64,000 nt of DNA, from assembly GCF_056712565.1 (NCBI RefSeq), contig NZ_CM160072.1. One strand, written 5' to 3'. The stretch's first letter is position 1. Each line of letters begins with the position of its first letter. Shown one piece after another: positions 55,618 to 58,600 of this stretch. The position numbers and the translations under genes are program-made. The notes beneath the pieces are model-generated. The model did not search any database. It saw nothing but the letters and a program-made list of their open reading frames with translations, and had not been told where the DNA came from.

Positions 55618-58600
55618 TTGAGCCAGGAATACACTGAAGACAAAGAAGTCACATTGACAAAGTTAAGTAGCGGCCGCCGTCTTCTGGAGGCGTTGCTGAT
55701 CCTTATTGTCCTGTTTGCCGTCTGGTTGATGGCTGCCTTACTAAGCTTTAACCCTTCGGACCCCAGCTGGTCGCAAACGGCCTGGCATGAACCTATCCAT
55801 AATTTAGGTGGGATGCCCGGTGCGTGGTTGGCAGATACGCTGTTCTTTATTTTTGGCGTGATGGCTTACACCATTCCCGTCATTATTGTCGGCGGTTGTT
55901 GGTTTGCCTGGCGTCATCAGTCCAGCGACGAATACATTGATTATTTTGCCGTTTCGCTACGCATCATTGGCGTTTTGGCGCTCATCCTTACCTCCTGTGG
56001 TCTGGCGGCAATCAACGCTGACGATATCTGGTATTTTGCCTCCGGTGGCGTCATTGGCAGCTTACTAAGCACTACGCTACAACCACTGCTACACAGTAGC
56101 GGGGGAACTATTGCGCTGCTCTGCGTTTGGGCAGCGGGCCTGACGCTGTTCACCGGTTGGTCATGGGTGACCATTGCTGAAAAACTCGGCGGCTGGATTT
56201 TAAATATTCTTACCTTCGCCAGTAATCGTACCCGTCGCGATGATACCTGGGTCGATGAAGATGAGTATGAAGACGACGAAGAGTATGAAGATGAAAATCA
56301 CGGCAAACAGCATGAATCACGCCGTGCCCGTATTCTTCGCGGCGCGCTAGCGCGTCGTAAACGGTTGGCGGAAAAATTCATTAATCCGATGGGGCGGCAA
56401 ACAGATGCTGCGCTGTTCTCCGGTAAGCGGATGGATGATGAAGAAGAGATTACCTACACTGCACGCGGTGTGGCTGCCGACCCTGACGACGTCCTGTTTT
56501 CGGGCAATCGTGCAACGCAGCCAGAATATGACGAATACGATCCATTATTAAACGGTGCGCCAATTACCGAACCTGTTGCTGTAGCAGCTGCTGCTACCAC
56601 GGCGACACAAAGCTGGGCTGCACCGGTTGAACCTGTGACTCAGACGCCGCCAGTTGCCTCTGTTGATGTTCCACCTACGCAACCTACAGTAGCCTGGCAG
56701 CCTGTACCGGGGCCGCAAACGGGAGAACCGGTTATTGCACCTGCACCGGAAGGTTACCCACAGCAGTCACAATATGCGCAGCCTGCAGTGCAATATAATG
56801 AGCCGCTGCAACAACCTGTACAGCCACAGCAGCCGTATTATGCGCCTGCGGCTGAACAGCCTGTGCAACAACCTTACTACGCTCCTGCGCCGGAACAGTC
56901 TGCGCAACAGCCGTATTACGCCCCTGCGCCAGAACAACCGGTGGCAGGTAACGCCTGGCAAGCCGAAGAGCAGCAATCCACTTTTGCTCCACAGTCTACA
57001 TACCAGACGGAGCAAACTTATCAGCAGCCAGCCGCTCAGGAGCCGTTGTACCAACAGCCGCAACCCGTTGAACAGCAGCCTGTTGTGGAGCCTGAACCCG
57101 TTGTAGAAGAGACAAAACCCACGCGTCCGCCGCTTTACTATTTTGAAGAAGTGGAAGAGAAGCGAGCCCGTGAACGTGAACAACTTGCGGCCTGGTATCA
57201 ACCGATTCCAGAACCGGTTAAAGAACCGGAACCGATCAAATCTTCGCTGAAAGCACCTTCTGTTGCAGCAGTACCTCCAGTAGAAGCCGCTGCCGCTGTT
57301 TCTCCGCTGGCATCTGGTGTGAAAAAAGCGACACTGGCGACGGGGGCTGCCGCAACCGTTGCCGCGCCAGTCTTCAGTCTGGCAAATGGCGGTGGACCGC
57401 GTCCGCAGGTCAAAGAGGGGATTGGCCCGCAGTTGCCACGACCGAAACGCATCCGCGTGCCAACTCGTCGTGAACTGGCGTCTTACGGTATTAAGCTGCC
57501 CTCACAGCGTGCGGCAGAAGAAAAAGCCCGTGAAGCCCAGCGTAATCAGTACGATTCTGGCGATCAGTACAACGATGATGAAATCGATGCGATGCAGCAG
57601 GATGAACTGGCACGTCAGTTCGCCCAGACGCAGCAGCAACGCTATGGCGAACAGTATCAACATGATGTGCCCGTGAACACAGAAGATGCAGATGCTGCGG
57701 CAGAGGCAGAACTGGCTCGTCAGTTTGCTCAAACTCAACAACAACGTTATTCCGGCGAACAACCGGCTGGGGCGAATCCGTTCTCGCTGGATGATTTTGA
57801 ATTTTCGCCAATGAAAGCGTTGCTGGATGATGGTCCACACGAACCGCTGTTTACGCCAATTGTTGAACCTGTACAGCAGCCGCAACAACCGGTAGCACCG
57901 CAGCAGCAATATCAGCAGCCGCAACAACCGGTAGCACCGCAGCAGCAATATCAGCAGCCGCAACAACCGGTTGCACCGCAGCCGCAGTATCAGCAGCCGC
58001 AATATCAGCAGCCACAACAGCCGGTTGCACAGCAGCCGCAATATCAGCAGCCACAACAACCGGTTGCACAGCAGCCGCAGTATCAGCAGCCACAACAGCC
58101 GGTTGTATCACAGCCGCAGGATACCCTGCTTCATCCGCTGTTGATGCGTAATGGCGACAGCCGTCCGTTGCATAAACCGACGACGCCACTGCCTTCTCTG
58201 GATTTGCTGACACCGCCGCCGAGCGAAGTGGAGCCGGTAGATACCTTTGCGCTTGAACAAATGGCGCGCCTGGTAGAAGCGCGTCTGGCTGATTTCCGTA
58301 TTAAAGCCGATGTTGTCAATTACTCTCCGGGGCCAGTTATCACTCGCTTTGAATTGAACCTGGCACCGGGCGTAAAAGCAGCGCGCATTTCTAACTTGTC
58401 ACGTGACCTTGCCCGTTCACTTTCGACGGTGGCGGTGCGTGTCGTTGAAGTTATTCCTGGCAAACCCTATGTAGGTCTGGAGTTACCGAATAAAAAACGA
58501 CAAACCGTTTATCTGCGCGAAGTTTTGGATAACGCCAAATTCCGCGATAATCCGTCGCCATTAACCGTGGTGCTGGGTAAAGATATCGCCGGTGAGCCGG

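Follow-up and report, generated by a model that had tools for sequence, protein, structure and literature searches.

The length difference between two Escherichia coli FtsK proteins lies in two coding repeat arrays of the linker, one of which is the known VNTR locus CVN001

The ftsK gene in the DNA analysed here, a stretch of 64,000 nucleotides that we refer to as the window, begins with TTG, as it does in K-12, and encodes a protein of 1347 aa, against 1329 aa for FtsK of K-12 MG1655 (b0890). The question raised by this locus is where the 18 additional residues lie, how they arose and whether they matter. The original prediction, which had both protein lengths right (the second as about 1329 aa), assigned the whole of the difference to an array of tandem 39 bp units in the PQ-rich linker, and regarded this array as prone both to slippage and to collapse or expansion during assembly. 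The protein is an FtsK/SpoIIIE DNA translocase in which all four Pfam families (Table 1) score far over their cut-offs, and it is 98.9% identical to K-12 FtsK when gaps are left aside.

The low-complexity linker occupies all of FtsK from residue ~192 to ~857, and the flagged array, which we call array B, forms the final ~80 residues of this proline/glutamine-rich domain (FtsKL, between FtsKN and FtsKC), ending 22 residues upstream of the FtsK_alpha domain. Bigot et al. in 2004 and Dubarry et al. in 2010 reportedly studied large deletions of the linker, and not natural copy-number alleles of array B. [quoted passage not shown] Just upstream of array B the linker also contains a 14-residue motif that occurs twice, 35 residues apart, and Salmonella FtsK fragments contain a similar pair.

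Table 1. Positions in the window, and residues in FtsK, of the features discussed in the text
Feature	Window position	Strand	FtsK residues	Basis or remark
ftsK coding sequence	55618..59661	+		TTG start
FtsK_4TM			20-191	Pfam
FtsK_alpha			858-958	Pfam
FtsK_SpoIIIE motor			966-1179	Pfam
FtsK_gamma			1282-1342	Pfam
Array A, second 39-bp coding VNTR in the linker	56827..56943	+	404-442	Tandem Repeats Finder, alignment
14-residue linker motif, first copy	57604..57645
14-residue linker motif, second copy	57709..57750
Array B, 249 bp, in the ftsK frame	57874..58122	+	753-835
Unit a, two identical 39-bp copies (perfect 78-bp duplication)	57874..57951	+		unit comparison
Period 39, 3.3 copies, 96% matches	57874..58002			Tandem Repeats Finder
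Period 39, 3.3 copies, 93% matches	57991..58118			Tandem Repeats Finder
Period 15, 2.7 copies	57978..58017			Tandem Repeats Finder
Partial unit [c], CAGCAGCCGCAATAT (QQPQY), 15 bp	57991..58005	+		alignment, unit comparison
Remaining copy of the 9-bp repeat CAGCCGCAA	57994..58002
CVN001 forward primer AACCGGCTGGGGCGAATCC (Lindstedt, from PMC8143711)	57761..57779	+		exact match
CVN001 reverse primer GGCGGCGGTGTCAGCAAATC (Lindstedt, from PMC8143711)	58201..58220	-		exact match
Longer forward primer variant (PMC11773471)	57759..57779	+		exact match, unique in the window
Reverse primer variant (PMC11773471)	58190..58211	-		exact match, unique in the window
Antisense ORF, 120 aa	57851..58213	-
Antisense ORF, 197 aa	57502..58095	-
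Type I-F CRISPR-Cas locus, between clpA and infA	38731..48507
csy2	45078..46001			internal stop codon
cas6f	47024..47578			internal stop codon

Array B has the unit order a a b [c] d e f, in which six 39-bp units are joined by one partial unit of 15 bp, [c]; the full units encode a 13-residue peptide and close variants of it, with a motif that ends in (P/Q)QY. Its lag-39 identity is 0.876, compared with 0.493 +/- 0.032 and a maximum of 0.629 in 5000 codon shuffles, so that the repeat stands far above chance. Together with the rows from Tandem Repeats Finder, this bears out the presence of tandem 39 bp units in the PQ-rich linker; the span put forward for them, 57873-58113, does contain a real repeat, although the extent in frame is actually that listed in Table 1. 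Apart from the two copies of unit a, most units of the window array differ in sequence, and self-BLAST gave no second copy of array B elsewhere in the window. Two open reading frames run through array B on the minus strand; these were rejected as real genes, since they remain open merely owing to the CAG/CTG-rich composition of the repeat, in which stop codons are absent.

When aligned, the window and K-12 proteins differ by 15 substitutions and by two gaps. The larger gap (13 residues, at ~416-428) falls inside a second array (array A) that lies about 1 kb upstream of array B, and the other, of five residues, corresponds to the partial unit [c] (QQPQY) and is the sole length difference inside array B. 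The 18-residue excess over K-12 consists of two independent differences, +13 aa in array A and +5 aa in array B, so that the attribution to array B made by the original prediction holds for five of the 18 residues and fails for the other 13. The repeat count within array B, which was expected to set the two strains apart once the linkers were aligned, proved to be equal at six full 39-bp units in each. A simple gain of units in array B alone, by a single slippage step worth 18 aa, would account for the total of 54 bp, and Tandem Repeats Finder does give a row of period 54 in array B, but we consider such a gain very improbable given that, in the protein alignment, 39 bp of the difference fall in array A and just 15 bp in array B, and that the six full units of the window and the six of K-12 have no DNA variant in common. 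The array B regions of the two strains are separated by ~28 substitutions (estimated from 92.2% identity), and 60 of 3657 non-array sites of ftsK differ, which also argues against a single step. Because of this divergence outside the arrays, the window and K-12 alleles are old and separate, and more than a single slippage step apart.

Array A is itself a tandem array of 13-residue units, with three in the window and two in K-12. Among 60 evenly spaced rows of complete genomes, two units were present in 19, three in 20 and four in 20, with a single unit in the remaining one. We did not find array A as a named marker in the MLVA literature examined. One sequence labelled DH5alpha (NZ_CP026085.1, 4.83 Mb) has an array A region of three-unit length, as against the two units of K-12 MG1655; genomes of K-12 derivatives are generally smaller than 4.83 Mb, and the strain label of this entry may be wrong.

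A further possibility is that units were lost or added during assembly, so that the repeat number in the window is not that of the living strain. The perfect 78-bp duplication formed by the two a units is the kind of feature that could be cited in favour of this, as are the partial FtsK fragments found on contigs of 0.5-1.2 kb in many public short-read assemblies. However, the exact 1347-aa protein, which appears under the UniRef name B7MHK2_ECO45 (E. coli O45:K1 S88), is present on at least 1000 contigs, the longest of 5.23 Mb, and 117 complete genomes match the 551-bp region around array B at 99% identity or more; moreover, array B is just 249 bp long and its units are mostly distinct. The chance of an assembly error here is next to nil, and we regard an artefact as excluded for the window allele, which differs from K-12 in length as strains ordinarily do. 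Public databases hold entries named 'DNA translocase FtsK, partial', from both E. coli and Salmonella, on contigs of about 0.5-1.2 kb and in clusters of 99 to 245 members, which are homologous to window positions ~57700..58400, a pattern suggesting that contigs assembled from short reads frequently end at these arrays. The general caution over assemblies voiced in the original prediction therefore has some support, yet it is not applicable to the window allele.

The lineage of the window can be stated with the help of the DNA next to ftsK within it. The adjacent 24 kb of the window is 100% identical to that of O1/O2:K1:H7 strains and of the type strain ATCC 11775; these serotypes are members of the ST95 complex, in phylogroup B2, and the window allele is that of an ST95-like B2 lineage of the E. 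coli S88 type. Positions 30000-54000 of the window are covered to at least 80% in only 134 of 5426 genomes. This part includes a type I-F CRISPR-Cas locus with cas1f, cas3f, csy1, csy2, csy3 and cas6f, two CRISPR arrays and a tRNA-Ser, and the system is probably inactive because csy2 and cas6f each have an internal stop codon.

The 551-bp region around array B finds a match in 5425 of the 5426 E. coli genomes, with a span that varies. Frequencies were estimated from 40 and 60 evenly spaced rows, which is a sample and not a full census. In the set of 60 taken at even steps from the 5426 records, the commonest span was 575 bp, corresponding to seven units (27 rows, ~45%), followed by 536 bp, corresponding to six units as in K-12 (22 rows, 37%); the 551-bp span of the window accounted for four rows, a frequency of about 5-7%, and a 341-bp span with one unit for two (3%). 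A further five rows (8%) were partial alignments, which we read as alleles with eight or more units, comparable rows fetched from the 551-bp search having turned out to be eight-unit alleles. For closer comparison 18 ftsK genes were fetched, giving 19 sequences with the window, and among these array B has 1, 3, 5, 6, 7 or 8 units and FtsK ranges from 1264 to 1381 aa. In a multiple alignment of the 19 sequences the gaps are confined to two blocks, arrays A and B, and once these are removed ftsK is exactly 3657 bp long in every one. The indels observed, of 15, 24, 39, 57 and 195 bp, are all multiples of 3, and the reading frame is intact in all 19 alleles. A phase-variable contingency locus, in which a shift of frame or a change of promoter spacing would be expected, was considered and rejected, the alleles all being in frame.

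The tempo of these changes is best seen in strains whose ftsK genes are otherwise nearly identical. Among the window, ATCC 11775 and strain ZJ3920 there is no SNP in the 3657 non-array bp, and the proteins are of 1347, 1334 and 1328 aa respectively; ATCC 11775 has the array B order a b [c] d e f, with one unit a where the window has two, and ZJ3920 has lost 57 bp of array A. Similarly, K-12 and strain 25403 differ at four non-array sites, and have six units and one unit in array B respectively. Since unit numbers differ where non-array SNPs are few or absent, the arrays change faster than point substitutions build up. The proneness of the array to slippage that was originally proposed is well supported in this sense, with 1 to 8 units of array B in E. 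coli and a one-unit difference between alleles that have no SNP elsewhere in ftsK. The pattern is the signature expected of slippage or of unequal exchange between units, and from it we infer that unit number would shift through replication slippage or unequal recombination between units. As the units are a multiple of three bases long, such changes would fall in frame and leave this essential gene intact, and it is for this reason that the ftsK frame is kept.

Evidence on the origin of the partial unit [c] comes from two strains, SSGNw1 with the order a m b [c] n o p and UPEC132 with a m b q n o p. Their ftsK genes agree over the whole length, array A included, except that a complete unit q in the latter takes the place of [c] in the former. 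In unit q the 9-bp direct repeat CAGCCGCAA is present in two copies 24 bp apart; loss of one repeat with the intervening bases yields exactly [c], one copy of the repeat being retained in the window. We therefore propose, as the best reading of these comparisons, that [c] would be the remnant of a complete unit from which 24 bp were deleted between the two direct repeats. This is the parsimonious direction, since q is found in DEF10, MS 16-3 and A1.S1.65 as well, and since seven-unit relatives are much commoner than alleles that carry [c]: 912 records match, at 95-99% identity, a form of the window allele reconstructed with q in the position of [c], against roughly 250 with [c]. The latter number was estimated from the 551-bp search, with a 60-bp junction query as a rough check; this query returned 347 records at 80% coverage or more, some of which are two-piece joins.

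The converse process, a 15-bp tandem duplication of QQPQY in a six-unit allele, is suggested by the period-15 array that Tandem Repeats Finder reports around [c], with 2.7 copies, and by the appearance of the window as bearing a 15-bp insertion relative to K-12. We consider it quite unlikely, however, because UPEC132 matches SSGNw1 throughout ftsK save for the complete q, because an insertion could account for q only by restoring it to the letter, when q is present in three further alleles, and because of the numerical excess of seven-unit relatives over [c]-bearing alleles. The deletion reading is direct for the SSGNw1/UPEC132 pair alone, and it is carried over to the window because [c] there has the same sequence and the same position, following the same unit b, even though the downstream units differ. 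Among the 5426 genomes no exact match to a seven-unit parent with the order a a b q d e f was found, the best being 98.1-98.3% identical, and the direct parent of the window allele would be either unsampled or altered by later exchange. A QQPQY partial unit is also present in the bovine strain OkiPb01709 (NZ_AP042659.1), where it has another sequence (CAGCAGCCGCAGTAT) and another position, after unit 2, in a distant background with 69 non-array differences. As sequence, position and background all differ from those of [c], an intra-unit deletion of 24 bp appears to be recurrent, having happened more than once.

Array B is already known as a typing marker: it is CVN001, one of the VNTR loci used in the generic E. 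coli MLVA scheme, and a coding minisatellite in ftsK. CVN001 forms part of the GECM-7 and GECM-10 schemes (PMC5217547 and PMC8143711, citing Lindstedt et al. 2007 and Lobersli et al. 2012), and 'CNV001 (ftsK)' is listed with its primers in PMC11773471. Exact matches to both published primer pairs flank array B in the window (Table 1), and the locus has the other attributes of CVN001, namely a position inside ftsK, a 39-bp unit with a 250-bp offset, and a copy number that varies. Alleles of CVN001 are named by the formula (PS-250)/39, where PS is the product size (PMC8143711). With the Lindstedt primers the predicted amplicon is 460 bp for the window and 445 bp for K-12, corresponding to 5.38 and 5.00, both of which round to allele 5. 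Whole-unit strains give integers, predicted amplicons of 250, 328, 445, 484 and 523 bp among the fetched strains corresponding to 0, 2, 5, 6 and 7, with a value of 0.00 for the one-unit strain; the window allele departs from this series, being non-integer on account of its 15-bp partial unit, and would be rounded on a gel to the same allele as K-12. K-12 presumably belongs to the ST10 complex. Allele 5 has been recorded in ST10-complex strains and allele 6 in ST131 (PMC3407997), so that the value for K-12 fits the recorded allele and supports the identity of array B with CVN001, with which it shares gene, unit length, primer flanks and K-12-type allele size. A Swedish MLVA survey recorded CVN001 alleles 4 to 8, with alleles 5 and 6 at 40% each. 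The repeat in tolA (CVN004 in E. coli, SENTR1 in Salmonella) is likewise an in-frame, low-complexity linker repeat of an envelope/division protein with a strain-dependent copy number, although it lies in another gene and has another unit length, of 15 or 45 bp.

Taken together, we hold it to be highly probable that array B is CVN001 with a length that varies by slippage or unequal recombination, that the window carries an ST95-like B2 allele, that [c] is the remnant of a 24-bp deletion, and that the 18-residue excess comes from two arrays.

With respect to function, the peptide and the number of its units are to be distinguished. The 116 units that were compared comprise 45 DNA variants and only 17 peptides, with a pN/pS of ~0.13, a crude value in that the units are paralogous; the unit peptide is constrained, being under purifying selection. 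Salmonella FtsK fragments have the same 13-residue unit repeated at the same FtsK position, bounded by EPLFTP on one side and by a 15-residue stretch on the other, together with irregular variants of 10 and 15 aa, and a tandem array of this unit has been kept since before the Escherichia/Salmonella split. A Citrobacter-like sequence, also with an array, has QQPAQPVAPQQHY. In Klebsiella, Cronobacter, Pantoea and Edwardsiella this part of the linker carries PQ- or PA-rich stretches that are not repetitive. The proteins returned by this cross-genus search were mostly short partial fragments, which suffice to recognize arrays and do not amount to a systematic survey.

The Salmonella array is also a typing locus. 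STTR7/SENTR2 of the Salmonella enterica MLVA scheme (PMC2430564, PMC8627665) lies at the homologous position of FtsK and has a 39-bp unit encoding the same 13-aa peptide as array B, and the in-frame indels reported in it measure 84 bp and 195 bp; it differs from array B in belonging to another genus, in the larger number of copies in reference strains (9.3) and in its other irregular units. When an array indel of 28 aa was swapped between two strains of Salmonella Enteritidis, survival in egg white was unchanged (PMC6137255). In our reading, the peptide composition of the unit matters, while its copy number would be close to neutral, to judge by this one Salmonella phenotype test and by the wide natural range of alleles.

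An adaptive view would hold that unit numbers specific to a lineage tune how far the FtsK motor reaches, or what it interacts with, and that selection maintains them. The strong conservation of the unit peptide (pN/pS 0.13) and its presence in Salmonella are compatible with such tuning, as are the requirement for the linker in normal FtsK activity and its contacts with divisome proteins (PMC5357621), and alleles do follow clones, as with allele 6 in ST131 and allele 5 in the ST10 complex. Clone-specific alleles are predicted by descent alone, however; variants arise within clones, the natural range of 1 to 8 units extends to near-identical backgrounds (six units in K-12 against one in strain 25403), and the exchange of Salmonella alleles was without effect in the sole assay tried. 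Adaptive tuning therefore seems to us decidedly unlikely, and we would give just as little credence to the combined view that unit number is a selected, lineage-specific setting of FtsK tether length or divisome contact and that array A is as informative a typing marker as CVN001.

Copy number near neutrality thus remains the preferred reading, and the finding carries little biological weight in itself: it concerns a known and tolerated copy-number polymorphism in a disordered linker, in use for strain typing since 2007. Its practical meaning is that non-integer alleles such as that of 460 bp are lost to rounding in gel-based MLVA, and that differences in FtsK length among E. coli strains, which arise in two separate arrays and not in one, are not to be taken as errors or as functional changes.
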